Below are positions 2,165-28,331 of a stretch of DNA of 38,593 nt, piece after piece (position 1 is the first letter of the stretch; every line of letters begins with the position of its first letter). The position numbers were made by a program, and so were the translations under genes. Under the pieces are notes generated by a model that made no database searches, was not told where the DNA came from, and saw only the letters and a list, made by a program, of their open reading frames with translations. Where the stretch lies: positions 1-38,593 of the forward strand of contig SKXC01000080.1 of the NCBI GenBank assembly GCA_007128625.1, given 5' to 3'. Source of the DNA: Syntrophomonadaceae bacterium (GTDB lineage Bacteria > Bacillota > Dethiobacteria > DTU022).

Positions 2165-2364
2165 CGGATGAACCCGGTGGGAGAGTTCCGATTTTCGGAC
2201 GCCGAAGGTGCAACCTTTCGCTAGGCAGGCGGAAGGGAAACTCTCAGGCTTAAGTACCATTGGGGGACGCATCTCTGGAGAGCACCCGCCAGTACGGGAC
2301 ACCGACGGGGAAAGCCCTTTAATTACTAATTAAAGTAGCAATCTCTCAGGTTATAAGGACAGAG
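2165..2364 (+). promoter_or_regulatory. Tandem glycine riboswitch (two aptamers) controlling the gcv operon
   Basis: Aptamer 1 (about 2165-2262): GGTGGGAGAG..TTCCG/CGGAC hairpin..GCCGAAGGTGCAA..AACTCTCAGGC. Aptamer 2 (about 2271-2364): CTCTGGAGAG..CACCCG/CGGGAC..ACCGACGGGGAAA..ATCTCTCAGG..AAGGACAGAG. Both match the conserved glycine-aptamer core and sit directly upstream of gcvT. Confidence 0.9.
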
Positions 2365-2399
2365 CAAAAGCCAGCGGGCTTTTTCTGTCCTTTGTTTTT
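2357..2399 (+). terminator. Intrinsic terminator acting as expression platform of the glycine riboswitch
   Basis: GGACAGA(GC)AAAAGCC-AGCG-GGCTTTTTCTGTCC gives 7+7 bp with a 2-nt bulge, followed by TTTGTTTTT. The 5' arm (GGACAGAG) is the 3' strand of aptamer-2 P1, so glycine binding should prevent terminator formation (ON switch). Confidence 0.8.
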
Positions 2400-2445: not shown

Positions 2446-3549
2446 ATGAGTGAACCAAAGAAAACACCTTTTTATGAAAAACATGCTGCACTTGGTGGTA
2501 AGATTGTTGATTATAGCGGGTGGTTTTTACCGGTTCAATTTCCGCAGGGTCTGGTTGAAGAGGTTCATGATACCCGAAAACGGGCGACCATCTTTGATGT
2601 TTCGCACATGGGGGAAGTTGCTGTTGAAGGTAAAGATGCCGAAGCTTATCTGCAAAAGATATTGGTCAATGATATTTCCCGGCTTAAAGACAATGCGATC
2701 ATGTACAGTCCGGTTTGTTATCCGGATGGGGGAGTGGTTGATGACATCCTTATTTATCGCCTTAGCAGCGAAAATTTTTTCCTGGTGGTTAATGCAGCCA
2801 ACACCGACAAAGATTTTGACTGGTTTCAGGAGAATTCTTTTGGTGATGTCAGGCTGCAAAACCTCTCATCTGAATATGCCCAGATTGCCCTTCAGGGGCC
2901 AAATAGTGAAGCAATTTTGCAGGATTTGACTGAAATAAAACTGGCTGATATGAAATTTTATCACTTCTTGAGTGACGTGTCTGTTGCCGGTATAAACTCA
3001 ATTGTGTCGCGAACTGGCTATACCGGTGAGGACGGATTTGAGGTTTACTGTAAAAATGATGGAGCTTCAGCTTTATGGGAGGCGGTATGGGAAGCCGGAC
3101 AGAAAATGAACCTGCGTCCGGCAGGACTGGGAGCCAGGGACGTTTTACGCCTGGAAGCCTCTCTTCCCCTTTATGGCCATGAGTTAAGCAAAGAACTTAC
3201 CCCCCTGCAGGCCGGTTTAAACCGTTTTGTTGCTCTTGACAAGGCTGTAGCATTTAACGGCCAGGAAGCCCTGAAGAAGCAGAAACAGGAAGGGTTTAGC
3301 CGGAAACTGTTTGGTCTGGAGATGCTTGAGCGTGGTGTGCCACGGGAGAATTATCCGGTAAAAGTTGACGAGCAGGAAATTGGTTGGATAAGCAGCGGGA
3401 CTTACTCCCCGACGCTGGATAAGTTCATTGCCATGGCTTTTCTCGATCCCGAAACAGTAAAGCAAACGCAAGAAGTAAGTGTGCTGATCCGAAAACGTTC
3501 ATACCGGGCAAGGATCATAAAATTGCCATTTTACAGGAGGGAACAATAA
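2446..3549 (+). CDS. gcvT: Glycine cleavage system T protein (aminomethyltransferase)
   Basis: The track ORF starts at TTG 2392, inside the terminator T-tract. ATG 2446 follows AAAGGAGG. MSEPKKTPFYEKHAALGGKIVDYSGWFLPVQF is a typical GcvT N-terminus, and the length of 367 aa fits. Confidence 0.93.
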   Translation: MSEPKKTPFYEKHAALGGKIVDYSGWFLPVQFPQGLVEEVHDTRKRATIFDVSHMGEVAVEGKDAEAYLQKILVNDISRLKDNAIMYSPVCYPDGGVVDDILIYRLSSENFFLVVNAANTDKDFDWFQENSFGDVRLQNLSSEYAQIALQGPNSEAILQDLTEIKLADMKFYHFLSDVSVAGINSIVSRTGYTGEDGFEVYCKNDGASALWEAVWEAGQKMNLRPAGLGARDVLRLEASLPLYGHELSKELTPLQAGLNRFVALDKAVAFNGQEALKKQKQEGFSRKLFGLEMLERGVPRENYPVKVDEQEIGWISSGTYSPTLDKFIAMAFLDPETVKQTQEVSVLIRKRSYRARIIKLPFYRREQ

Positions 3550-3950
3550 TGGAATATAAGGTTGTTGATGGTGTTAAGTATACCCAACAGCATGAATGGG
3601 CTCGGCCGGAGGGCAATATTGCTGTTGTGGGCCTGTCTGATTATGCCCAGAACAAACTGGGAGAAATTGTTTTTGTTGAGTTACCCGATATCGGGGCGGC
3701 AGTTGAAGCAGGCAAGAGTGCTGCAGTTATTGAATCGGTTAAAGCAGTGGCCGATCTTTATGCCCCTGTGGATGGAACGGTAACCGAAGTTAACGAAACA
3801 CTGCTTGATCAACCCGAGCTAATCAACCAGGATCCTTACGGCGAAGGCTGGGTTTTTAAAGTGGAGATAAAGGATGAAAGTCAGTTGGCTTCACTAATGG
3901 ATAAGCCTGCTTATGAGGAGTTTATTATTAAAGAAGAAAAGGAGGAATAA
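3549..3950 (+). CDS. gcvH: Glycine cleavage system H protein (lipoyl carrier)
   Basis: 133 aa with the lipoyl-lysine motif AVIESVKAVADLYAP. The start overlaps the gcvT stop (TAATG). RBS is GGAGGG. Confidence 0.95.
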   Translation: MEYKVVDGVKYTQQHEWARPEGNIAVVGLSDYAQNKLGEIVFVELPDIGAAVEAGKSAAVIESVKAVADLYAPVDGTVTEVNETLLDQPELINQDPYGEGWVFKVEIKDESQLASLMDKPAYEEFIIKEEKEE

Positions 3951-3953
3951 AGC

Positions 3954-5303
3954 ATGGGAGGTAAACACTACCTGCCTCTTACCGATGAAGATCGGCAGGA
4001 GATGCTTTCTACGATCGGGGTTAAATCTATAGAAGATCTTTTCAGCGACATCCCGGCTGAAGTACGCCTGCAACGAGAATTAGATTTACCGCCTGCTTTG
4101 TCAGAATTAGAGGCAGTCAAGCATTTAAATTCACTGGCAGCAAAAAACAAACATTTAAACAACTGTATATCGTTTATGGGGGCCGGAGTTTATGACCATT
4201 TTATTCCTTCAGTGATCAAACATATTACCGGCAGAAGCGAATTCTATACTTCTTACACTCCTTATCAGCCTGAAATTAGCCAGGGAGTTTTACAGGCAAT
4301 ATTTGAATATCAAACCATGATTTGCCAGCTAACCGGAATGGATGTAGCCAATGCCTCCATGTATGACGGAGGAACAGCTGTTGCCGAGGGAGCGATCATG
4401 GGTTGTGGGGCAACTCGACGCTCGAAAGCATTGGTTTCACAGGCAGTAAGTCCATTTTACCGGGCGGTGCTAAAGAATTATTTTAACAGCCGGGGTTTGC
4501 CCCTGGAAGAAATACCTCTTAAAGATGGGAAGACCGATTTTGCAAAACTGGAAGAAATGATTGATGATCAGGTTGCTTCTGTAGTATTGCAGCAGCCCAA
4601 CTTTTTTGGTCTGGTTGAAGATTTTGATGGGGTTGCCGATCTGGTTCATAATCACAAGGCAGCCTTGGTCGTTTCTGTTGATCCCCTTTCTCTGCCTTTG
4701 CTTCAGGCACCTGCCGATTACGGGGCCGATATAGTAGTTGGCGAGGGACAAAGCCTGGGTGTGCCCCCCTCTTTTGGCGGTCCTTTGCTTGGGATTATGG
4801 CGGCACGGCAAAGTTTTGTGCGTCAGATGCCCGGACGTATTGCCGGTGAAACAGTAGATAGCGAAGGAAACCGAGGTTTTGTTCTAACCCTGCAGACCAG
4901 GGAGCAGCATATCAGGCGTGAAAAAGCTTCCTCCAACATTTGCTCCAATGAAGCGCTGGTTGCCCTGGCCGCAGCGGTTTACATGGCAGCCATGGGCCCC
5001 CAGGGTATGCACGAGGTTGCCGAGCAGTGCCTGCAAAAAACGGCATATGCCCGTCAGAAAATAACTGCTCTAAGCGGTTTTGAAGCGGCATTCAGCGGCC
5101 ATAATTTTAAAGAGTTTGCCGTTAAAGTACCCGGCAAACCGGAAGATATAAACAAGAAACTGCTCCAGAAAGATATTCTAGGCGGAGTCGATATTTCTCC
5201 GTTTTATCCTGAGCTGGAGAATACGATGCTTTTTGCCGTAACCGAGAAACGAACCCGTGAAGAAATTGATACCCTGGTTCAGGAACTGGAGGGATGGAAA
5301 TGA
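3954..5303 (+). CDS. gcvPA: Glycine dehydrogenase (decarboxylating) subunit 1
   Basis: 449 aa with the typical N-terminus ([14 protein letters not shown]) and the [11 protein letters not shown] motif. RBS is AGGAGG. Confidence 0.95.
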
Positions 5304-6757
5304 GAAAAGCTAAAGCCCTGCTATTTGAAATGGGACGTTCAGGTCGACAGGGATATTCCCTGCCGTCCTGTGATGTGCCGGAGAAACCTGTGGATGAACT
5401 GCTACCAAAAAAAATGCTAAGAACTGAACCACTGGAAATCCCTGAACTTTCAGAGGTGGAAGTAATTCGCCATTACACGGAGCTTTCCACCCGCAACTTC
5501 GGGGTTGATACCGGGTTTTACCCACTTGGTTCGTGTACTATGAAATATAATCCTAAAGTAAACGAAGAGGTAGCTGCCCTGCCCGGTTTTGCCTGCATGC
5601 ACCCCTGCCAGCCCGAACATACTGTCCAGGGAGCCCTGGAGTTGTATTACAACATGGAACAGCATTTAAAAGAGTTAACCGGGATGGAAAGGTTTACCAT
5701 GCAGCCTTCTGCCGGGGCCCATGGCGAGTTGACCGGCTTAATGGTAATCCAGGCCTATCATCGCAACAGGGACGACCATAAACGCAACAAGGTGCTCATT
5801 CCTGTCACAGCTCATGGGACCAACCCGGCCACAGTAACCATGGCCGGTTACGAAGTAGTCCAGATTCCCAGCGATGACCGGGGTAATGTCGATCTGGCAG
5901 CTCTTAAAGAAGCAGTTGATGATACTACCTCAGCCCTGATGTTAACCAATCCGAGTACGCTGGGTCTTTTTGAAGAAGAAATAACCGAGATGGCCAGGGT
6001 GGTCCATGATGCCGGCGGTTTGCTTTACTATGATGGAGCTAACCTTAATGCAATAATGGGGTACGCGCGCCCCGGTGATATGGGTTTTGATGTTGTTCAC
6101 CTTAATATCCATAAAACTTTGTCTACACCACACGGCGGTGGTGGTCCGGGAAGTGGACCGGTCGGCGTTAAAGAAAGGCTGGTACCATACCTGCCGGTTC
6201 CCCTGGTTGGCAAAAAAGGTGATCACTTTTATTTTGACTACGATTTACCGGAAAGTATTGGCAAGGTTCATTCTTTTTACGGTAATTTTGGAGTAGTGAT
6301 CAAGGCTTACAATTATATGCGTATGATGGGAGCTGAAGGCCTTAAGCAGGCTTCCACAGATGCCGTGCTCAACTCCAATTATCTGGCCAGCTTGCTTAAG
6401 AAGACCTACTATATTCCTTATGATAGGATTCGCAAGCACGAATTTGTTGTTTCTGCCAAACCGGAGAAGAAAAAAGGCGCGGGAGCCGGTGATATTGCCA
6501 AGGCCTTACTTGACCGCGGCTTCCACCCGCCCACGGTTTACTTTCCCCTGATTGTAGATGAAGCTTTGATGACTGAGCCGAATGATACCGAGAGTAAAGA
6601 AACTTTGGATGCCTATGCGCAGGCCATGGAAGATATAGCTAAAGACATTGATCAAGATGCAGAAAAAGTGGCAGCCGGTCCTTATCACACTGTAGTCGGA
6701 CGTCTCGACGAGGTGCGTGCAGTTCGTAATCCGATATTACGGTGGGAAAAGAAGTAA
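5300..6757 (+). CDS. gcvPB: Glycine dehydrogenase (decarboxylating) subunit 2 (PLP subunit)
   Basis: The PLP-lysine region is [20 protein letters not shown]. The track start ATG 5294 abuts the RBS GGAGGG (5288-5293), whereas ATG 5300 has 6-nt spacing and forms an ATGA overlap with the gcvPA stop. Either start is possible. Confidence 0.92.
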
Positions 6758-6873
6758 CTGCCGGATTATAAAACAAAAACATGTCAACTGATCATTTAAA
6801 TGCAGTTTAGTTGTTTCAATCGGCATACTTGATCAAAGATCCGGCATAACAGGCATCTGTTTATGATCAGCAG

Positions 6874-6926
6874 CAGGGGCGGCAGGAAGATTCTACTTGT
6901 TTTTCTGCTTCCCCTGTTTAATATTT
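6874..6926 (+). terminator. Probable (leaky) intrinsic terminator after gcvPB
   Basis: Imperfect ~15-bp hairpin CAGGGGCGGCAGGAAG...TTTTCTGCTTCCCCTG with one mismatch and a few G-U pairs, followed by the T-rich TTTAATATTT. Confidence 0.45.
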
Positions 6927-7044
6927 CAGCTTATAATATTTTAAAGAAATTGGTGCATCCATTCAAGCCCAGTAGTAATTGCGCTGATTTAACTTGAGTT
7001 AATCATTTAACCGGCAGGCTTATAAAAACCTGGAGGGCAGCTGT

Positions 7045-7932
7045 ATGCAGCAAAAAAAATGGCAAGCGGGCAATCAATTGGAAAGAATATTGAATCAAGC
7101 CTGGCAGAAGCGGCAGGCTAACTTTCCTGACACCATTGAATTTGTTACTCCAGGCCGCACTTTACCGGTGAGTGTAACCGGAACTGCCTGTTCTTTAAAC
7201 TGTGCCCACTGTTCCGGGGTTTATCTGCGTAATATGGTTTCGTTAAATACAACCCTTGCCGGTCCGGCAGGAGAGGAGAGCAGTTACCTGGTTTCGGGTG
7301 GATCTGATAAGCACGGCAGGGTGCCTCTGCTGGATAACTGGACTAAATTAAAAAAACTGGCTGAACGGGGGCCTCTAAACCTTCATACCGGCCTGGTAAA
7401 TGAAGAAGAGGCCCGTCAGCTGGCTGATGTAGCTGCTGTAGTTTCCTTTGATTTTGTCGGGGACAATGATACCATTGCTGCAGTTTATGGTTTACCGGTT
7501 ACGGTTGAGGATTACCTGGATTCATATCGATTCCTGCAGAAGTATTCCAGGGTAATTCCCCATCTTTGTATTGGGCTTAATAAAGGGAGGATAAAAAGTG
7601 AATACGAGGCTCTTCAAATGCTCAGACAGGAAAAGGTGGAAGCGATCAGTATGATCATATTTCGGCCCACAGCGGAAACTGCATTTAGCGATTGCTTGCC
7701 ACCACCCCCGGAAGAGGTGGCTTATTTTATTGCTTCCGCTCGCCTCATGTTTCCACATACGCCTCTTTATCTCGGCTGCATGCGTCCCGGTGGGCGTTAC
7801 CGTGAACAGGTAGATGTTTATGCACTTAAAGCAGGAGTAAACAAGATTGTTATCCCTTCACCTGCAGCTCGCAGACAGGTGATCCGGCTTGGCCTAACAG
7901 TTAGCCTTTCCGAGGAGTGTTGTTCCCTATGA
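7045..7932 (+). CDS. Radical SAM protein, non-LipA; candidate LipS1/LipS2-type lipoyl synthase subunit
   Basis: 295 aa with a single CxxxCxxC motif (TACSLNCAHCSG) near the N-terminus and further conserved-looking Cys (LGCMRPGG, C-terminal EECCSL). RBS is GGAGGG. The stop overlaps the next start (ATGA). It lacks the LipA CX4CX5C and RSSY signatures. Confidence 0.6.
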   Translation: MQQKKWQAGNQLERILNQAWQKRQANFPDTIEFVTPGRTLPVSVTGTACSLNCAHCSGVYLRNMVSLNTTLAGPAGEESSYLVSGGSDKHGRVPLLDNWTKLKKLAERGPLNLHTGLVNEEEARQLADVAAVVSFDFVGDNDTIAAVYGLPVTVEDYLDSYRFLQKYSRVIPHLCIGLNKGRIKSEYEALQMLRQEKVEAISMIIFRPTAETAFSDCLPPPPEEVAYFIASARLMFPHTPLYLGCMRPGGRYREQVDVYALKAGVNKIVIPSPAARRQVIRLGLTVSLSEECCSL

Positions 7933-8885
7933 TTCGTGTCTCGGCCGGAACTGCCGCTTGTATGGGTTTAACTCCTAATAAAATGGATGCTTATCCGAAA
8001 ACAGCATACCTTCTTTCCGGAAACAGCTGCCTGATGAATTGTTCTTTTTGTCCCCAGGGAACAGGGAAAAACGAAGGACTCAACCGGTTGGGCCGGGTTA
8101 CCTGGCCTGAATTCCCCTGGGCAGATGTTAATGATAGTTTAATTAATGCCGAAAAAAAAGGCTTCAGGCGAATCTGTCTCCAATCAGTCAGACATCGGGA
8201 TGGAATTGAAACCCTGCTGGGATTAATTGACCGCTTAAAACAATGGTCAAAACTGCCAATTTCGCTTTCAGCCTGGATCCAGGATGAAAAAGAAGCGGTT
8301 TCGCTAATTGAGGCCGGTGTAGAAAGGATCGGTCTTTCACTTGATGTGGTCAATCCATCGGCTTACCAAGAATTAAAAGGTGGTTCTCTGGATGAACGTC
8401 TTGATTTGCTGCTTAACTGTGCCCAAAATCTGCCCGCACGAATAAGCACTCACATAATATGTGGTCTTGGTGAAAGCGAAGCGGAAGTTCTTTCGCTGAT
8501 CGATAAGCTGGTGGAAGCCAAAGTGACAGTAGCACTTTTTGCCTTTGTGCCCCTCAAAGGGACTCCGCTGGGAAAATGGATTTCACCGGCTGTAGATTCA
8601 TACCGCAGAATACAGGCCGGCTGTTTTTTACTGCGTTCGAACTCAGCGCGTTTATCATCTTTTGAATTTGAAAAGGGGCGCCTGGTGTCATTTGGAATCC
8701 CTGCTCAGCAGTTAAAATTACTTTTAGCTGACGGATCAGCTTTTCAGACCAGCGGCTGCCCGGATTGCAACCGTCCTTTTTACAATGAACGACCTGGTGG
8801 TATAATCTATAATTATCACAGGGGGCTTAATAAAGATGAAATTGAAAAAGTCTTAAAAGAACTACTCGATTCATTGAAAAAGTAG
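7929..8885 (+). CDS. Radical SAM protein, non-LipA; candidate LipS1/LipS2-type lipoyl synthase subunit (second member of the pair)
   Basis: CxxxCxxC motif (NSCLMNCSFCPQG) plus a C-terminal CPDC. The track start is GTG 7917, but ATG 7929 gives an ATGA overlap with the upstream stop and GAGGAG at 11 nt. Length is 318 aa. Confidence 0.6.
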   Translation: MIRVSAGTAACMGLTPNKMDAYPKTAYLLSGNSCLMNCSFCPQGTGKNEGLNRLGRVTWPEFPWADVNDSLINAEKKGFRRICLQSVRHRDGIETLLGLIDRLKQWSKLPISLSAWIQDEKEAVSLIEAGVERIGLSLDVVNPSAYQELKGGSLDERLDLLLNCAQNLPARISTHIICGLGESEAEVLSLIDKLVEAKVTVALFAFVPLKGTPLGKWISPAVDSYRRIQAGCFLLRSNSARLSSFEFEKGRLVSFGIPAQQLKLLLADGSAFQTSGCPDCNRPFYNERPGGIIYNYHRGLNKDEIEKVLKELLDSLKK

Positions 8886-8915
8886 ACTTTTCAATTGATG
8901 AAGGAGGACTCAGCT

Positions 8916-9680
8916 TTGCGTTATCAATGGCGCCTTATCCTGGACCCTCCATTGGCCGGACAAGAAAATATGGAAAAGGATATAGAACTAATGGAAGAAG
9001 TGGCCACGGGCAAATGCCCTCCCACACTTCGTCTCTATCGCTGGTCGCCTCCGGCTGTATCGCTGGGTTATTTCCAGGATGAAAATGAGGTGGTTGATAT
9101 GACTGCCTGTTTCGCAGCCGGGGTTGATGTTGTCCGCCGGCCAACGGGTGGGCGGGCAGTGCTTCATGACCAGGAACTGACCTACAGCATTATTGTGCCC
9201 GAAATACATCCCTTTATCGACAGGGGGGGCGTAATGGATGCCTACCGGGCTATAAGCCGCGGGATAGTTACAGCTTTTAATTTGCTAGGTATCCTGGCTG
9301 CAGTTACACCGGAAGAAAAGAACAGGGCCGGTTTGGCACCCGGTTCATGTTTTGACAGTTCTACAGCTTACGAAATCCATGTTGATGGAAAAAAAGTGGT
9401 CGGCAGTGCACAGCTGCGCAGAGATGGTATTGTTTTACAGCACGGTGCCATACTACTAAAATTACCGGCAGAACTATACCGGAAGGTCTTAAAAAGCGAT
9501 TACTGCCGGAGAGAACAGGTTAAAGAATTTGAGCTTGGTGAAAAAGCAGCCGGCCTGAATGACCTGGGTTATAATGTCAGTTACGATCGTCTGGCCCGGG
9601 CACTGGTCAAAGCATTTTCAATGATCATCCCGGCAGTATTTACCAGTTCACATGGACTAATTAACAATAAGGGGGATTAG
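8916..9680 (+). CDS. Lipoate-protein ligase / octanoyltransferase family protein (LplA N-domain / LipM-like, short form)
   Basis: Contains RRPTGGRAVLHD and the catalytic-lysine motif DGKKVVGSAQ, both typical of the LplA/LipB/LipM superfamily. At ~254 aa it lacks the LplA C-terminal accessory domain. The track start TTG 8895 precedes the RBS AAGGAGG (8901-8907), so TTG 8916 (8-nt spacing) is the likely start. Confidence 0.8.
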   Translation: MRYQWRLILDPPLAGQENMEKDIELMEEVATGKCPPTLRLYRWSPPAVSLGYFQDENEVVDMTACFAAGVDVVRRPTGGRAVLHDQELTYSIIVPEIHPFIDRGGVMDAYRAISRGIVTAFNLLGILAAVTPEEKNRAGLAPGSCFDSSTAYEIHVDGKKVVGSAQLRRDGIVLQHGAILLKLPAELYRKVLKSDYCRREQVKEFELGEKAAGLNDLGYNVSYDRLARALVKAFSMIIPAVFTSSHGLINNKGD

Positions 9681-9683
9681 CAG

Positions 9684-11090
9684 TTGAGCGAAAAATATCA
9701 GGTAACAATAATCGGAGGCGGCCCGGGTGGCTACCTGGCTGCACTAAGAGCCGCTTCATTGGGGTTAAAAACAGCAGTTGTTGAGAAGGAAAAGTTAGGT
9801 GGAGTATGTCTGAATCATGGTTGTATACCGACCAAAGTTTTAACCCATGGAGCCTCTTTATATCGCCGTTTCCATGCGGCCGGAGAATTTGGTTTTGATT
9901 TTCAAAGTATAGATTTTTCATTTGGCCGGCTCCAGGAGAAGAAAAAAGCGGTTGTTAAAGAATTGACTGATCATGTTGGTGTACTGCTTGAAAACAGCAG
10001 GGTCGAAGTATTTTTCGGCAAAGCCAAAGCAGTAAATCCTAACCTGGTCAGTATAGTTCTGGCCAGCGGTGAAGAAATAAAGATAGAAACAGAGAATATT
10101 ATTCTGGCTACTGGCAGTGAAGAAATATTTCCGCCCACACCCGGGCTGGATTTGCCCGGGGTGATTACTTCCTGGGAAGCTTTGGCCCTTGATGAACTGC
10201 CGGAAACCATGGCTGTTATCGGCGGAGGAGTGATCGCCCTGGAAATGGCCTCCATTTTCTCTACCCTGGGTACGAAAGTGACCATTGTTCACCGCAGTGA
10301 ACGACTGCTGCGCCGGATGGATCTGGAAATGGTTCGTCGTTTATCCACTTACCTGCGAAAAAGCGGCTTGCAGATTATGATGAATACTCCTGTTGAAAAG
10401 ATTGAAGAAAATGATGACGGTCTAAAACTTACTGTTGCTACTAAGAAAGGGCAGGAAGTTTTAGAGGCTGAAAAAGTTTTGCTTTCAGTAGGACGTAAGG
10501 CCACTTTTGGCGACCAGGATCTAAATGCGCTGGGAGTTGAATATGATAAAGAGGGAATCAAGGTTAACAGCAAGATGGAAACTACTGTTCCGGGCATTTA
10601 TGCTGCCGGTGATGTTACGGCTCCGGGTTATTTTTTGGCTCATGTTGCCTATCATCAGGGATTGATTGCTGTTGAAAACATAGCCGGTATCGATGCTCAT
10701 TTTGATGGATCAGTTGTTCCGGCCTGCCTGTTTACCGATCCCGAACTGGCCTGTGTCGGTTTAAGTGAAGAGGAGGCCAGGGAAAAAGGTTTTGAAAACC
10801 TGCAGATTGGCAAGTTCCCATTTTCTGCCTGTGGAAAAGCAGCAACCCAGGGTGAAGATGAAGGAGCAGTTAAAATTATTGCTGCCGGTAATGAACAAAA
10901 AGTTATTGGAGTCCATATCCTGGGTCCCCATGCTTCTGATCTAATCCAGGAAGGATCCCTGGCTGTGGCCAGGGGAGCTGTTGCTGCCGAACTGGCCGAA
11001 CTTATCCACCCCCACCCGACCTTATCTGAATCGGTATGGGAGGCGGCAATGTCTATCAATAAAGCCCCTCTTCACTTCGGGCGCCGATGA
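9684..11090 (+). CDS. lpdA: Dihydrolipoyl dehydrogenase (E3 / glycine cleavage L protein)
   Basis: 468 aa with an FAD GxGxxG motif (IIGGGPGGY), the redox disulfide GGVCLNHGCIPTK and the C-terminal HPHPTLSE dyad. TTG start with an AGGGGG RBS. Confidence 0.92.
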   Translation: MSEKYQVTIIGGGPGGYLAALRAASLGLKTAVVEKEKLGGVCLNHGCIPTKVLTHGASLYRRFHAAGEFGFDFQSIDFSFGRLQEKKKAVVKELTDHVGVLLENSRVEVFFGKAKAVNPNLVSIVLASGEEIKIETENIILATGSEEIFPPTPGLDLPGVITSWEALALDELPETMAVIGGGVIALEMASIFSTLGTKVTIVHRSERLLRRMDLEMVRRLSTYLRKSGLQIMMNTPVEKIEENDDGLKLTVATKKGQEVLEAEKVLLSVGRKATFGDQDLNALGVEYDKEGIKVNSKMETTVPGIYAAGDVTAPGYFLAHVAYHQGLIAVENIAGIDAHFDGSVVPACLFTDPELACVGLSEEEAREKGFENLQIGKFPFSACGKAATQGEDEGAVKIIAAGNEQKVIGVHILGPHASDLIQEGSLAVARGAVAAELAELIHPHPTLSESVWEAAMSINKAPLHFGRR

Positions 11091-12202
11091 AAAAAATAGG
11101 GCTTATCGTCAATCCCGTGGCCGGTATGGGTGGAAAGGTCGGCTTAAAAGGAACCGACGGGCAGGATATAGTCGAAAAAGCTCGGGCTATGGGGGCCCGT
11201 CCTGAGTCGGCACAAAAAGCGGCTGTTGCCCTGCAGGTTTTATCTGCAATTAAGGAGGAAATTGAATTAATTACCTGTCCGGGGGAGATGGGAGAGGATG
11301 TTGCCCGCCGTTGTGGCTTTGAACCGCAGTTAATATCGGGAATCAGTGGGCAGACCACTGCAGATGATACAGAAAAAGCAGCCCGGGATTTGGCCGGTCT
11401 GGAAGTGGATTTGCTTCTTTTTGTTGGTGGTGACGGAACGGCCAGGAATATCTACAACGTGCTTGGTGATAATTCTGCTTTACCGTCGATTGGTGTTCCG
11501 GCCGGGGTAAAAATACATTCAGCTGTTTACGCCACTAATCCCCGTAACGCCGGGGAGCTGGCTGTTCAGTTTCTTCAGGATGCCAGCCTTCCTTTGCGCA
11601 GGGCCGAGGTCATGGATATAGACGAAGAGGCCTTTCGGGAAGGCCGTCTTTCTGCTCGCCTATACGGTTATCTCCAGGTGCCCTGTGCCGGTGATTTGAT
11701 GCAGCATTTAAAAATTGGTGGAACAGGAACGGAAGCATCTGTCCTGGAAGCAATTGCCGACAGTATTGTTGAAAAAATGGAGCCGGATATAGTTTATATC
11801 ATCGGTCCCGGATCGACAATTGAACCTATTATGAATAAGCTTGGTTTAAAAAATACCCTGCTCGGGGTGGATGTGGTTTTGAACAGGAAACTTGTGGCTA
11901 ACGATACCAATGAAAAACAGCTGCTTGAGCTGATTGCCGGTAAACAGGCTAAAATTGTGGTTACCGTAATCGGGGGACAGGGTTATATTTTTGGCCGGGG
12001 CAATCAACAGATCAGTGCAGATGTAATCAGGCAGGTAGGAAGAGAAAATATTATAGTTGCAGCTACCAGGGAGAAAATCTTTTCCCTTGAATACGAACGA
12101 TTGTTTGTTGATACCGGGGATGAAGAAGTTAATAAGATGCTATCAGGTTATATGAAAATTGTAACCGGGTATAACGAGGAATTAATATACCGGGTTGGTT
12201 AA
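11087..12202 (+). CDS. ATP-NAD kinase family protein (AcoX-like; function unknown)
   Basis: 371 aa with MKKIGLIVNPVAGMGGKVGLKGTDG and FVGGDGTARN (the NAD-kinase/diacylglycerol-kinase fold GGDGT motif). ATGA overlap with the lpd stop. Confidence 0.7.
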   Translation: MKKIGLIVNPVAGMGGKVGLKGTDGQDIVEKARAMGARPESAQKAAVALQVLSAIKEEIELITCPGEMGEDVARRCGFEPQLISGISGQTTADDTEKAARDLAGLEVDLLLFVGGDGTARNIYNVLGDNSALPSIGVPAGVKIHSAVYATNPRNAGELAVQFLQDASLPLRRAEVMDIDEEAFREGRLSARLYGYLQVPCAGDLMQHLKIGGTGTEASVLEAIADSIVEKMEPDIVYIIGPGSTIEPIMNKLGLKNTLLGVDVVLNRKLVANDTNEKQLLELIAGKQAKIVVTVIGGQGYIFGRGNQQISADVIRQVGRENIIVAATREKIFSLEYERLFVDTGDEEVNKMLSGYMKIVTGYNEELIYRVG

Positions 12203-12241
12203 TGATCCTGTCTGTAGTTAAGAGCAATAAATGTTATAATT

Positions 12242-12293
12242 AAAGGCAGGAGACAGCCTGGTTTCTAACTAAGGCAACTGCCTTTTTATTTGT
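12242..12293 (+). terminator. Possible intrinsic terminator ending the lipS-lpl-lpd-acoX-like unit
   Basis: AAAGGCAG (12242-12249) pairs with CTGCCTTT (12278-12285). A local hairpin AAGGC-AACT-GCCTT is also possible. The stem is followed by TTTTTATTTG. Confidence 0.45.
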
Positions 12294-12394
12294 ATAATGT
12301 TTTAAATGAATCATGGCAGCTGCAGCAACGTGTACGGTTTATTATCTATTCAAGTTTCTGCGTAAATGTAAATCTTTCAAGACAGGAGATGTAA

Positions 12395-12946
12395 TTGTTG
12401 TCGCTAATTGAAGGTGAAAAAGAACATATACTTGCTTGTGTAAAGGAAGTCCTCGGTGAGAACACGAAAACCCGTGAGAATTTGATTCCCCTTTTACAAC
12501 AGGTCCAGCATAAACTGGGTTACCTGCCGTCCCTGGCCATGGAGAAAATTGCTGAAGGGGTAAATGTCCCTACGGTTGACATTTACGGTCTGGCTACGTT
12601 CTATAACCAGTTTAGGATGAATCCGCCGGGTAAACACCAGGTTAAAGTTTGTCTAGGGACTGCCTGTTATATGGTTGGTGGTGATATTACCCTGGAATCT
12701 TTTGAACGTCGAATGGAAATAAAGGAAGGGGAAACAAGTCCCGATCGATTATTTAGCCTGGAACGGGTAGCCTGTGTTGGCTGCTGCACCCTGGCGCCGG
12801 TAGTAGTAGTTGATGATAAAGTAGAAGGCAAGGTTACTCCGACCAGGGTTGATGGAATTATGCTCGCCTTAAATGAAGAAAACGGAAAAGCTGCCGCAGA
12901 ACAGAAACCAGATCAGTCAGAGGGTGACGATAATGGTCACAGCTAA
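12395..12946 (+). CDS. NuoE/HydC-like [2Fe-2S] thioredoxin-fold subunit
   Basis: 183 aa with the Cys pattern CLGTAC...CVGCC typical of NuoE/HydC. TTG start 6 nt after CAGGAG. Acidic C-terminal tail. Confidence 0.85.
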   Translation: MLSLIEGEKEHILACVKEVLGENTKTRENLIPLLQQVQHKLGYLPSLAMEKIAEGVNVPTVDIYGLATFYNQFRMNPPGKHQVKVCLGTACYMVGGDITLESFERRMEIKEGETSPDRLFSLERVACVGCCTLAPVVVVDDKVEGKVTPTRVDGIMLALNEENGKAAAEQKPDQSEGDDNGHS

Positions 12947-14846
12947 TAAACCACAGGATAACTATAAAAAAATGTTTGAGCAGGCCCGGGAACAGGTGCA
13001 GTCCAGGCAGGAGAAGTCCCGGGTATTAATTGGAACAGCCTCATGTGGGCTGGCTGCCGGTGCCGAGCAGGTCAAGGAAAGTTTTTGCCGCGAAATTGAG
13101 TCCAGGGGTCTGGATGTAGAGATAATAGAAGTAGGTTGTATCGGGCACTGCTATGCCGAGCCGCTGGCTATAATAGACAAACCCGGTTTTCCACCAGTCT
13201 GCTATGGATATCTTGACGAAGGCCTGGTTCACCGCTTAGTGGAGGACTTCATAGCCGGCGATGACCCTTCTTATGAATATGCCCTGGCCGCCCTTGAACG
13301 TAATGACGAATTTCCCACCTTTGAAGATTTTCCCCGTGGTGTTTACGAGAAAAAGGTAATCCTTGAGAACTGCGGTTTGACTGATTTCAGTAAAATTGAA
13401 AGCTATATCGCCCGCGAAGGATACAGTGCCCTGGCTAAAGCCCTTTCTGAGGAACCGAAGCAGGTTCTTGAAGAAGTGAAAGCAGCCCGTCTGAGGGGTC
13501 GTGGGGGAGCTGGTTTTCCGGCCGGCACCAAATGGGAAGCCTGCATGAACAGCAGTGATGATGAAAAGTACGTCATCTGCAACGCCGATGAAGGAGATCC
13601 CGGAGCTTTCATGGATCGCAGCATCCTGGAATCAGATCCTCACCTGGTCTTAGAAGGCATGATCTTGTGCGCTTACGCGGTGGGTGCCCGGCAGGGTTAT
13701 TTATACATCCGGGCTGAATATCCCCGGGCCGTAGAACATATCCAAAAAGCTATTGAAGAGGCCAGAAAGAAACAACTGCTTGGTTCTTCTATACTGGGCA
13801 CCGGTTTTTCATTTGACCTCCAAGTATTTCAGGGTTCTGGGGCATTTATCTGCGGAGAGGCAACAGCCCTGGTCAATTCCATGGAAGGTAAAATGGGTAT
13901 GCCTGAAAGCAGGCCTCCGCGACTTGTTGAGCATGGTTTTAGGGGTAAGCCAACTGTTCTTAATAATGTCAAAACCTTTGCTTATGTGCCCCTGATTGTA
14001 AACCGGGGTGCAAAATGGTTTAAAGGTATTGGCACTCCGGATAGTCCGGGAACTGCTGTTTTTTCGCTAGTTGGTAAAATTAACAATACCGGCCTGGTTG
14101 AAGTGCCTATGGGTACAACTTTACGTCAGTTGATTGAAGAGGTTGGTGACGGATTACCAGAGGGACGTGAATTTAAAGCTGTGCAGATTGGAGGCCCCTC
14201 CGGTGGCTGCCTGCCTGAATCAGCCCTTGATGTACCTATAGATTTTGATTCTCTTCATGAAGCGGGGGCGATTATGGGCTCAGGTGGACTGGTGGTAATG
14301 GACCAGGACGATTGTATGGTAGCAGTAGCCCGCTACTTCCTTGAATTTACTCAGCACGAATCCTGTGGAAAATGCACTTTTTGTCGCCTGGGGACCAAGC
14401 ACATGCTTGATATTCTTACCGGGATAACCAGGGGCCAGGGTGACGATCAAACCTTGCAGCTGTTAAAGGAGTTAAGTGAAGATGTCCGTGACGGTTCTTT
14501 ATGCAACCTGGGTTGTACTGCTCCCAACCCGGTATTAACCACTTTGAAATATTTTCACGATGAATATAAGGCTCATATAGAAGAAGGCCGTTGTCCGGCC
14601 CTGGTATGCCGTGACTTGATTCTATATTATATTGAACCGCCGAAATGCAGCAAGCTGTGCAATGTTTGTGTGGGCAGTTGTCCGACCGAGGCTATTTATA
14701 CCCGGGATGACGGGCTGAAAGCAATTGACCAGGACAAATGTGTGAAGTGTGATAATTGCCGCAAAGCCTGCCCGCCTGAATATAATGCGGTGATCAAACT
14801 GTCTCCCCCTGTTTTACCGGCAGAAAAGGAGCGTAAAGCAAAATGA
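12933..14846 (+). CDS. NuoF/HydB-like NADH-binding FMN/FeS flavoprotein with N-terminal [2Fe-2S] and C-terminal 2x[4Fe-4S] extensions
   Basis: Contains GRGGAGFPAGTKWE, ICNADEGDPGAF and ESCGKCTFCRLG, plus C-terminal CNVCVGSCP and CVKCDNCRKACP. The track start 12873 lies inside the upstream gene. ATG 12933 follows GAGGGTG and overlaps the NuoE-like stop by 14 nt. Confidence 0.88.
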   Translation: MVTANKPQDNYKKMFEQAREQVQSRQEKSRVLIGTASCGLAAGAEQVKESFCREIESRGLDVEIIEVGCIGHCYAEPLAIIDKPGFPPVCYGYLDEGLVHRLVEDFIAGDDPSYEYALAALERNDEFPTFEDFPRGVYEKKVILENCGLTDFSKIESYIAREGYSALAKALSEEPKQVLEEVKAARLRGRGGAGFPAGTKWEACMNSSDDEKYVICNADEGDPGAFMDRSILESDPHLVLEGMILCAYAVGARQGYLYIRAEYPRAVEHIQKAIEEARKKQLLGSSILGTGFSFDLQVFQGSGAFICGEATALVNSMEGKMGMPESRPPRLVEHGFRGKPTVLNNVKTFAYVPLIVNRGAKWFKGIGTPDSPGTAVFSLVGKINNTGLVEVPMGTTLRQLIEEVGDGLPEGREFKAVQIGGPSGGCLPESALDVPIDFDSLHEAGAIMGSGGLVVMDQDDCMVAVARYFLEFTQHESCGKCTFCRLGTKHMLDILTGITRGQGDDQTLQLLKELSEDVRDGSLCNLGCTAPNPVLTTLKYFHDEYKAHIEEGRCPALVCRDLILYYIEPPKCSKLCNVCVGSCPTEAIYTRDDGLKAIDQDKCVKCDNCRKACPPEYNAVIKLSPPVLPAEKERKAK

Positions 14847-15499
14847 GTGAGCATGTTAATATTACTATTGACGACCGTGAAATAAAAGTCCGTCCCGGTG
14901 AAAAATTACTCTGGGCAGCCCTGGAAAACGATATCTATATTCCTCACCTTTGCGCCATAAAAGAAGAAAGCAGACCGAATGCTTCCTGCCGCCTCTGTTT
15001 TGTTGAAATTGACGGAATTGATTATCCGGTTGCTGCCTGCACAAGGCAGGTCGAAGAGGGAATGGTAGTGAAAACACGGAGCACGAAGGTGGATCGCCTG
15101 GTTAAAACTGCTTTTGAATTGCTCCTTTCAGATCATAACTTGAAATGTAGTGAATGTCCGGCCAACCGTAATTGTGCTTTACAGAGAATAGCTAAAGAAA
15201 GGGGCCTCAAGCTTAAGCACAACCGGTTTAAACCGATTGGCAGGGAATTTGAACTTGATGACAGTCCGGCTGAATTTGCCTTTGATCGCAGCCGTTGTGT
15301 CCTTTGCGGGCAGTGTATCTGGGCTGATCGGGTCGGGGCGGAAGCATGGATATTTGGCTTTGCCAATCGCGGCATCGATCGGGTAGTGACTACTTTTAAC
15401 AATCTGCCCCTGGCTGAATTGAAATGTAATGAATGCACCCTGTGTGTGGATGCCTGTCCGGTTGGTGCTCTTTACTACAAGAGAGAACAAAAAGTTTGA
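14843..15499 (+). CDS. 2Fe-2S plus multi-[4Fe-4S] ferredoxin-like subunit (N-terminal part of NuoG/HydA/FdhA, no catalytic domain)
   Basis: 218 aa with 2Fe-2S Cys (HLCAI..CRLCFVE..ACTRQV), the His-ligated cluster motif HNLKCSECPANRNC, and CVLCGQC and CNECTLCVDACP. ATGA overlap with the NuoF-like stop. Confidence 0.8.
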   Translation: MSEHVNITIDDREIKVRPGEKLLWAALENDIYIPHLCAIKEESRPNASCRLCFVEIDGIDYPVAACTRQVEEGMVVKTRSTKVDRLVKTAFELLLSDHNLKCSECPANRNCALQRIAKERGLKLKHNRFKPIGREFELDDSPAEFAFDRSRCVLCGQCIWADRVGAEAWIFGFANRGIDRVVTTFNNLPLAELKCNECTLCVDACPVGALYYKREQKV

Positions 15500-18779: not shown

Positions 18780-19529
18780 ATGGAGTATTTGGAAAAGATT
18801 GCTCGTCTGGCTGAACTGATTAAAGAAAATGAACGTTTTTATGTTCTGACCGGGGCCGGTATCAGTACCGCCAGTGGAGTCCCCGATTTTCGTTCACCGG
18901 GAACCGGTTTGTGGGAAAAAGTCGATCCAATTGCCACATCGTCAGTTGATGTTCTACATAATAACCCCCGTTTATTTTATGAAGCGGGCTTCAGTCGTTT
19001 CACCAGGTTATCTTCAGCTGAGCCAAACCAGGGCCATTACATGCTGGTACGGTTGGAAGAGCTTGGTTACCTGAAGGGCCTGGTAACCCAAAATGTCGAT
19101 GGACTGCATGTTAAAGCCGGTTCAAAGAATGTTTGGGAGGTGCACGGGCATCTGCGATCTGGTTACTGCCTTGGCTGTAAAATGAAATATCCTTTTGAGG
19201 AGCTGGTCCATCAGGTTGATTTAAAGCACATTCCCCCTGTTTGCCATAACTGTCACAGCACCCTCAGGCCGGATGTGGTTTTATTTGGAGATCCGATGCC
19301 GGATTTTTTTCTGGATCTCTACCAGGAGATTCAGCGGGATTGTGATTTTATGCTGGTTGTGGGCAGCAGCCTTGTCGTATATCCGGTTGCTGACCTGCCT
19401 CGCCTGGCAGGTAAAATGGCGATCATTAATAACCAGCCGACTGATTATGACCAGAGGTCGGAAGTGGCTATCAGTGAGGATATCAGCAAAGTTTTAAACG
19501 ATCTGGTCAAAGAGCTTGAGAGTAATTGA
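18780..19529 (+). CDS. NAD-dependent protein deacylase, Sir2 family (CobB/SrtN-like)
   Basis: 249 aa with GAGISTASGVPDFRS, QNVDGLH, the catalytic-His motif WEVHGHL and a Zn ribbon (CLGC...CHNC). Confidence 0.88.
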   Translation: MEYLEKIARLAELIKENERFYVLTGAGISTASGVPDFRSPGTGLWEKVDPIATSSVDVLHNNPRLFYEAGFSRFTRLSSAEPNQGHYMLVRLEELGYLKGLVTQNVDGLHVKAGSKNVWEVHGHLRSGYCLGCKMKYPFEELVHQVDLKHIPPVCHNCHSTLRPDVVLFGDPMPDFFLDLYQEIQRDCDFMLVVGSSLVVYPVADLPRLAGKMAIINNQPTDYDQRSEVAISEDISKVLNDLVKELESN

Positions 19530-20854: not shown

Positions 20855-21169
20855 TTACTGTTTCCAGGAACAGTCTGAATCATATCCTTTCACAGCTGTT
20901 CTTTTAAAAAGGGTGCCTTTCAGGTATAAGGTAATGTGATCTGTTTTTTTCTCCAGAATTTTTGCGATATATACTCTTAAGCTATCTGTATTAAAAAGTA
21001 AATATTTGCCCTGATTGTCTTTTGGCTTTTTATAATCAATAACTGTCTCAATAAATGAGCATCCTCCACAGCAGCCGCCTCCGCGGCTGACTATTACATC
21101 TATAGTTATAGTATCCTTGTTTTTTGATATAAGCCATTTTTTCAGAACAGGTTCAACGGTTAAGTCCAA
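20855..21169 (-). CDS. Small Cys-motif protein (GGGCCGGCS); IscA/HesB-like layout, possibly the 'CC/Se motif' (seleno)protein family
   Basis: The track ORF starts at ATG 21190, but GAAGGAGG lies inside it 7 nt before TTG 21169, giving 104 aa (MDLTVEPVLKKWL...). ITIDVIVSRGGGCCGGCSF resembles the IscA GGGCSG strand. The family name is from memory only. Confidence 0.45.
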   Translation of the reverse strand: MDLTVEPVLKKWLISKNKDTITIDVIVSRGGGCCGGCSFIETVIDYKKPKDNQGKYLLFNTDSLRVYIAKILEKKTDHITLYLKGTLFKRTAVKGYDSDCSWKQ

Positions 21170-21269
21170 GCTTAAGCCTCCTTCCATCATAAATCAACTG
21201 ATATTATATATTAAGACTGATTCAATCCTTAAACCGGCATAAAAACTCTGGCAGCAGATACTGTTTATG

Positions 21270-24666: not shown

Positions 24667-25335
24667 ATGCACCGAAAAAGAGCCGTTATTATTGCCAACG
24701 GTGATTTGGAAGCCCTGGATTTTTACCGCAACTTGCTTAAAGATGATGATTTGATTATTTGTGTCAACGGTGGCTCGGGGCATGCCCTGGTTCTGGGCTT
24801 AAAACCAGACCTGGTTATTGGTGATCTTGATTCTCTGAAGACCGATGATCGGCACAAAATAGAGCAGCTTAACCCTATTATAATCAAACATCCTTCCGTT
24901 AAGGACAAATCAGATCTGGAACTGGCCATTGACAGGGCTGTGGAAATGCAGCCCGACCAGATACTGATCATAGGCGCCCTGGGAGGGGCCAGGGTCGACC
25001 ATACATTTATTAATTTGCTGCTGCTTCAAATTCCTCTTCAACATAATATCCCTGCCCGAATTATTGATCAGAGCCAGGAAATTTTTTTGGTAAAAGACGA
25101 AGCTTTCATCGACGGAAATGTCGGTGATTACCTTTCGCTTTTTTCTTTAACAGCAGAAACAAGCGGTATTTTTACCGAGGGAGGACTAAAATATCCCCTG
25201 CAAGGAGAAAGCCTTTACTTTGCTTCCACACTTGGTTTAAGCAACGAACTGACAGACAACCAGGTAAAAATTATCATAAAATCAGGGCTTTTGCTGGTGA
25301 TCAAAACCCGTAGAATCGGGGAATTTGATGTTTAG
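24667..25335 (+). CDS. thiN: Thiamine diphosphokinase
   Basis: 222 aa with AVIIANGDL, VNGG and GDLDS, plus a C-terminal thiamine-binding beta domain layout. Confidence 0.8.
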   Translation: MHRKRAVIIANGDLEALDFYRNLLKDDDLIICVNGGSGHALVLGLKPDLVIGDLDSLKTDDRHKIEQLNPIIIKHPSVKDKSDLELAIDRAVEMQPDQILIIGALGGARVDHTFINLLLLQIPLQHNIPARIIDQSQEIFLVKDEAFIDGNVGDYLSLFSLTAETSGIFTEGGLKYPLQGESLYFASTLGLSNELTDNQVKIIIKSGLLLVIKTRRIGEFDV

Positions 25336-26085
25336 AGCATCAATTAGCAGCTGTTTATAAGAACTGAAAAGTGAAGTTGTCAACACAGTTTTTGAACGGG
25401 GCCTTTTCAGTTCGATTTTTTGCTCGATGGCAATTTTACCTGGACGTTCGGTGATCACATAAACTCGGTCGGAAAGATATATTGCTTCGTCAATACTGTG
25501 GGTAACAAATAGAACAGAGCGCTTGAAGCGTTCCCAGATTTCAAGCAGCCAGTCCTGCAGAATTTCCCGGGTCAGGGCGTCGAGAGCGCCAAATGGTTCA
25601 TCAAGCAGCATTAAATCGCTTTCAATCAGCATTGTACGCAGCAGGGCAGCCCTCTGACGCATCCCACCGGAGAGCTGGTGGGGATAATAATTAGCAAAAC
25701 CTTCCAGTCCAAATGCGGGCAGTAGTTCTTCCACCCGGGCAAAGGCTTTGTTTTTTGTCCACTTCCTGGCTAAAAGAGGCAAAGCGGCGTTTTGCTTCAG
25801 AGTTTTCCACGGGAAGAGCAAATCCTGCTGGGGCATATAGCCGACCATTTGGGGCTTACCGTTGACATGACGGTTGTCAATAAGAACCCGTCCCCGGTCC
25901 GGTTTAAGCAGCCCGGCAGCAATTTTTAGAATTGTGCTTTTACCCGAGCCGCTCGGACCGAGGACTGAAACAAATTCTCCGCTTTTTACATACAGCGAAA
26001 CATTATTAAGGACAGGAAGCAGTTCTTCCCCGGAGTAGTAGGTTGCATCAATATTTTCCAAATTTAGTTTGATGGTATTCTTCAT
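25282..26085 (-). CDS. ABC transporter ATP-binding protein (NitT/TauT family, ThiZ-like)
   Basis: Walker A (GPSGSGKST), signature (LSGGMRQR) and Walker B (LMLLDEPF). ATGA overlap with the upstream binding-protein gene. The 3' end overlaps thiN by 54 nt, convergently. Confidence 0.88.
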   Translation of the reverse strand: MKNTIKLNLENIDATYYSGEELLPVLNNVSLYVKSGEFVSVLGPSGSGKSTILKIAAGLLKPDRGRVLIDNRHVNGKPQMVGYMPQQDLLFPWKTLKQNAALPLLARKWTKNKAFARVEELLPAFGLEGFANYYPHQLSGGMRQRAALLRTMLIESDLMLLDEPFGALDALTREILQDWLLEIWERFKRSVLFVTHSIDEAIYLSDRVYVITERPGKIAIEQKIELKRPRSKTVLTTSLFSSYKQLLIDALNIKFPDSTGFDHQQKP

Positions 26086-27080: not shown

Positions 27081-27097
27081 AACACATCACCTTTCTT

Positions 27098-28151: not shown

Positions 28152-28174
28152 ATAAGTCCTCCTTTCTAAACAAA

Positions 28175-28204
28175 TTAAAAAACTGACGCCAACATCGGCG
28201 ACAG
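28175..28204 (-). terminator. Intrinsic terminator acting as expression platform of the TPP riboswitch
   Basis: Minus strand CTGTCGCC-GATGTT-GGCGTCAG (8 bp, one mismatch) followed by TTTTTTAATTT. It lies between the aptamer and the RBS of the ykoF-like gene. Confidence 0.7.
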
Positions 28205-28213
28205 CCATAAAAC

Positions 28214-28316: not shown

Positions 28317-28331
28317 TATTCGATTTATTAA

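Follow-up and report, generated by a model that had tools for sequence, protein, structure and literature searches.

The DNA considered here is a stretch of 38,593 nucleotides, referred to below as the window, from a Syntrophomonadaceae bacterium (assembly GCA_007128625.1, contig SKXC01000080.1), and the subject of this article is a block of three genes at positions 7045-9680 within it. The block consists of two radical-SAM (S-adenosylmethionine) genes, lipS1 and lipS2, and a gene of the LplA/LipB superfamily, and is situated between the glycine cleavage genes gcvT, gcvH, gcvPA and gcvPB, which lie directly 5' of lipS1, and lpd. In all probability the block represents a self-contained module for de novo lipoyl assembly (LipM, LipS2 and LipS1) carried inside a glycine cleavage operon, where it would mature the H protein GcvH.

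The features of the locus are collected in Table 1. gcvPA and gcvPB together encode a two-subunit glycine dehydrogenase (decarboxylating). GcvH scored 159.2 bits against TIGR00527 (cut-off 115.85) and also matched PF01597, with its lipoyl-lysine being K65 in the sequence ESVKAV. The tetranucleotide ATGA at 7929-7932 is shared by lipS1 and lipS2, its ATG opening the latter and its TGA closing the former, and lpd starts three bases beyond the stop codon of the third gene. Mechanical open reading frame (ORF) starts lie further upstream for lipS2 (GTG 7917) and the third gene (TTG 8895); the starts in Table 1 were adopted because of the public gene calls on contig SKOA01000163.1 of GCA_007123095.1 (318 and 254 aa), orthologue alignments, and Shine-Dalgarno sequences. 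The likely start of gcvT is ATG 2446, preceded by AAGGAGG at 2427-2433, the mechanical start being TTG 2392, which is directly 3' of the stem at 2366-2383 and within the T-rich tail of that stem. gcvT was named on the basis of its annotation in an earlier reading of this DNA made from the sequence alone (the sequence-only reading), the upstream glycine riboswitch, and its conserved place beside gcvH and gcvP.

Table 1. Features of the glycine cleavage and lipoylation locus (positions in the window)
Feature	Position	Strand	Basis and remarks
Tandem glycine riboswitch	2168..2364	+	Rfam RF00504, 67.0 and 41.2 bits (gathering score 32); aptamers 2168-2269 and 2273-2364
Terminator-like stem with T-rich tail	2366..2392	+	terminator scan and sequence; AAAAGCC-AGCG-GGCTTTT
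gcvT (aminomethyltransferase)	2446..3549	+	ORF list, sequence, full-length tblastn matches in 50+ loci
gcvH (H protein, lipoyl carrier)	3549..3950	+	TIGR00527, PF01597
gcvPA	3954-5303	+	ORF; PF02347 GDC-P on public gene calls
gcvPB	5294-6757	+	ORF; PF02347 GDC-P on public gene calls
Terminator-like hairpin with U-rich tail	6872..6927	+	between gcvPB and lipS1; hairpin 6872-6918
lipS1	7045..7932	+	295 aa; NF053742
lipS2	7929..8885	+	318 aa; NF053743; start ATG 7929
lipM-type gene	8916..9680	+	254 aa; PF21948; start TTG 8916, 30 nt after lipS2
lpd (dihydrolipoyl dehydrogenase, L protein)	9684..11090	+	TIGR01350, 499.2 bits (cut-off 408.8); start TTG 9684

The radical-SAM pair and its conserved setting

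The lipS1 product carries the motif CSLNCAHC (C49/C53/C56) and the lipS2 product the motif CLMNCSFC (C34/C38/C41). When compared with the curated equivalog models of NCBIfam, the former scored 264.8 bits against the LipS1 model NF053742 (cut-off 230, E = 9e-79), with profile positions 1-268 of 268 matched to residues 33-293, while the latter scored 335.9 bits against the LipS2 model NF053743 (cut-off 270, E = 2e-100), with profile positions 1-291 of 292 matched. These matches are far beyond chance, and the two genes are members of the LipS1 and LipS2 families. Models of other radical-SAM families were rejected: the BioB model TIGR00433 gave 28.2 bits for the lipS1 product and 49.8 bits for the lipS2 product against a cut-off of 225, and the PylB, HmdB, MoaA, and LipA models of NCBIfam all remained below 35 bits, far under their cut-offs. 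The best score to any canonical LipA model was 24.7 bits, obtained with the lipS2 product only, against a cut-off of 203 (LipA cut-offs range from 203 to 310), and direct reading of the translations found the CX4CX5C and RSSY motifs in neither radical-SAM protein.

Public records name both proteins simply 'radical SAM protein' because Pfam alone is uninformative here, offering a generic Radical_SAM match for the lipS2 product and a sub-threshold BATS match for the lipS1 product. An AlphaFold model of the lipS1 product (pLDDT 94) has biotin synthases as its closest structures (TMq 0.68-0.70), followed by HydE and PylB, and no LipA structure is found among the 50 listed fold matches. Sequence searches of the PDB returned no match for the lipS1 product even at E = 1 and only weak BioB, PylB, and LipA matches for the lipS2 product. 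An exhaustive search of 1.84 billion sequence representatives yielded 256 LipS1 clusters at E <= 1e-30, and LipS1 occurs in natural fusions with LipS2 in both orders, exemplified by the proteins P0362 (649 aa, LipS1-LipS2) and P0440 (683 aa, LipS2-LipS1) as well as P0376 and P0411. The fusions provide independent evidence linking the functions of the two proteins.

The biochemistry of the two-protein lipoyl synthase has been worked out with LipS1 (TK2109) and LipS2 (TK2248) of Thermococcus kodakarensis (Jin et al., 2020; Neti et al., 2022, PMC9585515). In that system, LipS2 first places sulfur on C8 of an octanoyl-lysyl peptide and LipS1 then places it on C6; each protein holds an auxiliary [4Fe-4S] cluster, and mutagenesis has shown a requirement for H159, C230, C276, and C277 of LipS1 and for C85, C276, and C279 of LipS2 (Neti et al., 2022, PMC9585515). 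In the clade to which the window belongs, 81 LipS1 sequences (the window and its orthologues) all share C49/C53/C56, C245, C292, and C293, and 97% or more of them keep H173; C34/C38/C41, C83, C277, and C280 of LipS2 show no variation in 73 sequences. The LipS1 spacings between His and Cys and between Cys and the Cys pair (72 and 47 residues) come close to the 71 and 46 of T. kodakarensis, the correspondence in numbering being drawn from spacing and the full-length hidden Markov model (HMM) match and not from alignment of the archaeal sequences themselves. The putative ligands of the auxiliary clusters are thus H173, C245, C292, and C293 in LipS1 and C83, C277, and C280 in LipS2.

To examine gene order, each species was represented by a single genome in a scan that yielded 182 LipS1 relatives; the counts that follow are taken from the best 80 loci, which are the closest relatives (79% identity for the nearest) and therefore describe this clade and not LipS1 at large. 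The clade includes soda-lake 'Syntrophomonadaceae' and Bacillota metagenome-assembled genomes (MAGs), Dethiobacter, Desulforudis, Desulfofundulus, Desulfosporosinus, Chloroflexota, and Desulfovibrionaceae MAGs. The gene immediately 5' of lipS1 is gcvPB in 63 of the 71 loci with enough flanking sequence, and gcvH is located no more than 5 kb upstream of lipS1 in 51 of 53. lipS2 adjoins lipS1 in 72/73 loci, a lipM-like gene comes next in 59/62, and lpd follows in 37/56, so that the order gcvT-H-PA-PB-lipS1-lipS2-lipM(-lpd) is kept in most of the 80 loci, mainly in Bacillota but in Chloroflexota and Desulfovibrionaceae too. All 65 loci that could be scored couple lipS1 to lipS2 by an NTGA overlap (40 ATGA, 23 GTGA, and 2 TTGA), and the translational coupling of the pair is thus itself conserved.

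Variations on this arrangement were also encountered. Two Desulfofundulus loci (L057 and L059) have gcvH-lipS1-lipS2 with lpd upstream and neither a lipM-like gene nor gcvT/P adjacent, and in two Chloroflexota loci (L073 and L075) lipS1, lipS2, and the lipM-like gene precede gcvH-PA-PB, and gcvT is read from the other strand. In locus L004, from a related MAG, the lipM-like gene and lpd occupy a single frame without a stop codon (724-aa ORF at 11866-14040); LipM and Lpd may be naturally fused there, or the assembly may be wrong.

Much of the sequence-only reading is upheld by these results. Its description of the locus (both CxxxCxxC motifs, the ATGA overlap, the third gene, the spacing to lpd, and the gcv genes upstream) agrees with the sequence throughout, and its proposal of a non-LipA radical-SAM pair of LipS1/LipS2 type is borne out by scores above both curated equivalog cut-offs where BioB, PylB, HmdB, MoaA, and LipA failed theirs; firm clustering with any other radical-SAM family was not seen in the profile comparison. 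The cysteines of the EECCSL tail and of CPDC, which it had put forward as candidates for auxiliary clusters, proved invariant in the 81 and 73 sequences and match in spacing C230/C276/C277 of LipS1 and C276/C279 of LipS2. The co-occurrence of the pair with gcvH, which it had proposed to test, was likewise found, with gcvH/gcvP neighbors in nearly all related loci, and the adjacency to lipoyl-protein genes, whose lack together with a lipA elsewhere would have told against the proposal, is conserved.

The LipM-type gene and a proposed route to lipoyl-GcvH

The product of the third gene contains RRPTGGRAVLHD and GKKVVGSAQ, and in Pfam comprises the LplA/LipB catalytic domain only (PF21948, E = 5e-36, and PF03099). 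All 120 of its listed relatives are 219-284 aa in length (single-domain proteins of about 250 aa), and their names vary between 'lipoate--protein ligase family protein' and 'lipoyl(octanoyl) transferase'. The decisive comparison for its assignment was with LipM of Bacillus subtilis, to which it is 41% identical over 237 residues (E = 7e-51), with C145 aligning with C150 of LipM and K160 with K165. This Cys/Lys dyad is part of the motif G[SA]CFD..[ST].YE......[KR]K..GSAQ, kept in 62 of 64 orthologues with both residues included. The LipM reference was confirmed by its 99-100% identity to entries named 'octanoyltransferase LipM [Bacillus subtilis]'; another potential LipM reference, PDB 2P5I (B. 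halodurans BH3822), scored just 23 bits against the family profile and was dropped. The third gene most likely encodes a LipM-type octanoyltransferase rather than an sLpl(AB)-type ligase.

A route to lipoyl-GcvH can be proposed in which the LipM-type enzyme would take an octanoyl group from octanoyl-ACP (acyl carrier protein) onto C145 and pass it to Lys65 of GcvH. LipS2 would then use a 5'-deoxyadenosyl radical derived from SAM and the sulfur of its auxiliary [4Fe-4S] cluster (held by C83, C277, and C280) to thiolate C8, after which LipS1, with its auxiliary cluster on H173, C245, C292, and C293, would thiolate C6 of 8-mercaptooctanoyl-GcvH to give lipoyl-GcvH, which Lpd would re-oxidize during glycine cleavage. 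The sequence data establish the families of the four proteins and the conservation of catalytic and ligand residues, gene order, and coupling; the order of C8 before C6, the sacrifice of the auxiliary clusters, and the roles of octanoyl-ACP (donor) and GcvH (acceptor) are all carried over by analogy with characterized systems. To judge from the anatomy of the locus, the lip genes would be expressed on the gcv transcript under control of the glycine riboswitch, at a level reduced because some transcripts would end at the hairpin at 6872-6918.

A stronger form of this proposal is offered tentatively, as something short of an even chance: that this Bacillota lineage, whose accession series suggests soda-lake sediment MAGs, and its relatives do without LipA, LipB, and Lpl, with GcvH as their sole lipoylated protein and the operon working as a glycine-induced assembly line in which the hairpin is an attenuator that keeps maturation enzymes scarce compared with structural subunits.

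Expression signals and alternative readings

Several points weigh against a self-contained module of LipM, LipS2, and LipS1 that matures GcvH. Christensen and Cronan reportedly identified C150 of LipM as its acyl-thioester residue in 2010; for the paralogue LipL, the literature assigns C150 an equivalent role. The proteins of this clade are known from their sequences alone, and the closest solved structure to the third protein, in sequence, profile, and fold, is the catalytic subunit of Thermoplasma acidophilum LplA (TMq 0.75). Cooperation of LipM with LipS1/S2 has been deduced solely from genomes, LipM sequences are scattered among LplA catalytic subunits within a single clade, and 42 of 106 LipS1/S2-containing Firmicutes also possess LipA (S4 Table; Tanabe et al., 2023, PMC10332631). 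LplB may be encoded outside these 38.6 kb, and the lip genes may be a partly separate transcription unit, given the hairpin followed by TATAAT in some loci.

The last point turns on the expression signals. By analogy with other gcvT riboswitches, the glycine riboswitch upstream of gcvT would be an 'ON' switch, and the stem at 2366..2392 is presumed to be its expression platform. The second terminator-like structure, between gcvPB and lipS1, has a minimum free energy of -27.7 kcal/mol (z = -5.3) and a stem (GGGG[CU]GGCAGG / CCUG[CU]U[UAC]CCCC) that is nearly invariant in 16 sequences, in which 96% of cells are paired while the loop and the flanking spacer vary; in addition to the window, these sequences come from loci L001, L002, L005-L007, L009, L012, L013, L017-L019, L021, L023, L027, and L028. 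Covariation was absent from the 16 sequences, which show one compensatory change, matched by about half of the shuffles, and the support for the hairpin is that of sequence conservation. Such conservation of the stem sequence is unusual for a plain terminator, and the hairpin might serve in protein binding or RNA processing.

Read-through from the gcv transcript into lipS1 is the simplest reading of this arrangement because in locus L002 the ribosome-binding site and ATG of lipS1 are directly 3' of the hairpin and because gcvPB and lipS1 abut or overlap in more distant loci. The hairpin would be a leaky terminator or a 3' stabilizer, keeping the maturation genes less strongly expressed than gcvTHP. 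A promoter scan found 26 sites where 24.2 were expected from shuffles, giving no usable promoter call.

The most resilient alternative accepts the module as functional but regards it as redundant, with a canonical LipA (plus LipB or Lpl) encoded elsewhere doing the bulk of the work and the lip genes under a promoter of their own in place of the riboswitch. It draws on the co-occurrence of LipA in Firmicutes cited above and on the stable, conserved hairpin after gcvPB, with TATAAT 3' of it in several loci, and is countered by the lack of promoter space between hairpin and lipS1 in L002, by the abutting or overlapping gcvPB and lipS1 of the more distant loci, and by the finding of no lipA among the scanned window genes and gap ORFs (fba, gcvT, gcvPA, and gcvPB were left unscanned). 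On balance we consider redundancy unlikely, though a serious contender, and retain the module inside the gcv transcript as the preferred reading.

A second alternative would make the third gene the LplA-N catalytic subunit of a bipartite lipoate/octanoate:protein ligase, with its LplB elsewhere, serving a scavenging 'ligase + LipS1/S2' route. Besides the T. acidophilum LplA subunit 1 being the best PDB match in sequence, profile, and fold, LipM and archaeal LplAB share one clade in which each has repeatedly given rise to the other (Tanabe et al., 2023, PMC10332631), and proteobacterial LplA-like enzymes, called single-domain in 2018, are now known to be genuine ligases. Fold comparison is of little help, as Foldseek matches the third-protein model to LplA, LipB, and 2P5I alike and does not separate ligase from transferase. 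The top NCBIfam match is LplA_large, but its 86.3 bits are far from the cut-off of 480, and the other ligase models are similarly rejected (LplAB at 74.1 bits vs 550 and TIGR00545 at 47 vs 280). Identity is 24-27% to T. acidophilum LplA against 41% to B. subtilis LipM, and the segment bearing the Cys that aligns with LipM C150, kept in 62/64 orthologues, is a gap in the T. acidophilum protein. There is no LplB-like ORF or Lip_prot_lig_C domain (PF10437) among the window genes and gap ORFs scanned against Pfam, and no space for one between the lipM-type gene and lpd. A ligase is accordingly improbable, and a LipM-type transferase is retained.

That the radical-SAM pair are biotin-synthase-like enzymes or other maturases acting on a substrate other than octanoyl-GcvH is scarcely credible, as the generic public annotation, BioB-like fold, and sub-threshold BATS match on which this would draw are set against passed LipS1/LipS2 cut-offs (BioB scoring 28 and 50 bits vs 225), a LipS-specific auxiliary ligand pattern, and adjacency to gcvH/gcvP and the LipM-type gene conserved in most of the 80 loci.

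Related systems and neighboring genes

LipM-, LipS2-, and LipS1-dependent maturation of GcvH would be a known kind of system, the association of LipS1/S2 with GcvH being already on record. The original T. kodakarensis assay peptide was a glycine cleavage H protein sequence. The assay peptide of Neti et al. (2022, PMC9585515) contains a motif identical to the ESVKA of the GcvH described here, and the same study noted that bacterial LipS1/S2 genes adjoin H-protein and ligase-family genes. The archaeal and present proteins belong to the same two families, with CX3CX2C motifs, a His, a Cys, and a C-terminal CC in LipS1, a Cys and CxxC in LipS2, and no CX4CX5C or RSSY, and in both cases an H-protein sequence is the assay substrate or would be the physiological one. 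They differ in that the T. kodakarensis locus tags (TK2109 and TK2248) are far apart, whereas the genes of the window are adjacent, coupled, and part of a bacterial gcv operon, and in the accompanying enzyme, an archaeal LplAB ligase there and a probable LipM-type transferase here.

The sLpl(AB)-LipS1/S2 route of sulfur oxidizers (Cao et al., 2018, PMC6067878), proved by Tanabe et al. (2023, PMC10332631), similarly pairs LipS1/S2 with a GcvH-like carrier and has an LplA-superfamily gene alongside. Its carrier, however, is LbpA of the sHdr system, its acyl-attaching enzyme is an ATP-dependent ligase, and LipT is often present, unlike the bona fide GcvH and LipM-like enzyme of the window, among whose scanned genes sHdr, LbpA, and LipT were not found. 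The B. subtilis LipM-LipA pathway shares with the window a LipM orthologue (41% identical, with the Cys/Lys dyad), a GcvH acceptor, and de novo supply from fatty-acid synthesis, but uses LipA for sulfur insertion in place of LipS2 and LipS1, whose genes here are within the gcv operon; no LipL was found among the scanned genes of the window. In Thermacetogenium phaeum, an operon gcvT-H-PA-PB-lpd-lplA (PMC12674515) provides another anaerobic Firmicute example of gcv genes with lpd and an LplA-family gene, although no lipS1 or lipS2 was reported there.

The closest precedent is genomic. Among 106 Firmicutes genomes with LipS1 and LipS2, 41 have LipM and no Lpl, a class that also includes 8 Chloroflexota (S4 Table), and the combination of LipS1/S2 with LipM was read as the same pathway; a 'LipSM' pattern also exists in the accompanying synteny tool (Tanabe et al., 2023, PMC10332631). 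The locus most likely belongs to this 'LipS1 & LipS2 + LipM, no Lpl' class, and its relatives come from the same phyla. The main text of that study is without the gcvTHP-lipS1-lipS2-lipM-lpd operon, its riboswitch, or its internal hairpin, and the searchable literature yielded no account that spells out the gcvT-H-PA-PB-lipS1-lipS2-lipM-lpd operon, how widespread it is, its riboswitch, or the hairpin. Two elements of the sequence-only reading are revised by these comparisons. It had described an LplA/LipM-type enzyme in a ligase-plus-LipS1/LipS2 route, of which the LipM-type part stands (41% identity to LipM with the dyad kept) and the ligase route most likely does not; and it had held the gcv context to be little explored, which overlooks the H-protein peptide assay, the neighborhoods reported by Neti et al. 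(2022), and the 41 Firmicutes of Tanabe et al. (2023).

The implications are consequently those of annotation and distribution, with no new enzymology or type of system implied. Genes labeled 'radical SAM protein' and 'lipoate--protein ligase family protein' in public records can now be named, and LipM with LipS1/S2 can be seen as usual across a fairly large clade that spans anaerobic Bacillota, Chloroflexota, and Desulfovibrionaceae, mostly beside glycine cleavage genes. The clade offers a compact four-gene test bed (gcvH, lipS1, lipS2, and lipM) for the LipM + LipS1/S2 route, and the locus suggests that these organisms possess, in the glycine cleavage system, a major module that is self-sufficient.

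The gene that follows lpd, overlapping it through ATGA at 11087-11090, encodes a NAD-kinase-fold protein (PF01513 and PF20143, 371 aa) and opens a series on the + strand (11087-15499) that continues with a NuoE-like protein (2Fe-2S thioredoxin-like), a NuoF-like protein (657 aa), and a 218-aa ferredoxin resembling the N-terminus of NuoG. The NAD-kinase-like, NuoE-like, and NuoF-like genes are kept 3' of gcv-lip-lpd in most close relatives (L001-L035 and others; the 218-aa gene was outside the tblastn queries), and their conservation suggests a dedicated NADH/ferredoxin module linked to glycine cleavage. A few kilobases downstream of the lipoylation genes, at 18780-19529 (+), is a gene for a Sir2-family protein (PF02146, E = 3e-48); some sirtuins remove lipoyl groups.

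Further along the window, a 111-aa ORF at 20855-21190 (-) with the motif GGGCCGGCS and no Pfam match occupies a 565-nt gap upstream of a cstA-like gene. A thiamine cluster extends over 24667-28320 and includes a thiamine pyrophosphokinase gene (24667-25335), genes for an ATP-binding cassette (ABC) transporter with an NMT1/THI5-like binding protein (25282-27889), and a thiamine pyrophosphate (TPP) riboswitch at 28211-28320 (-) (RF00059, 67 bits) upstream of a gene for a thiamine-binding protein (27861-28208).

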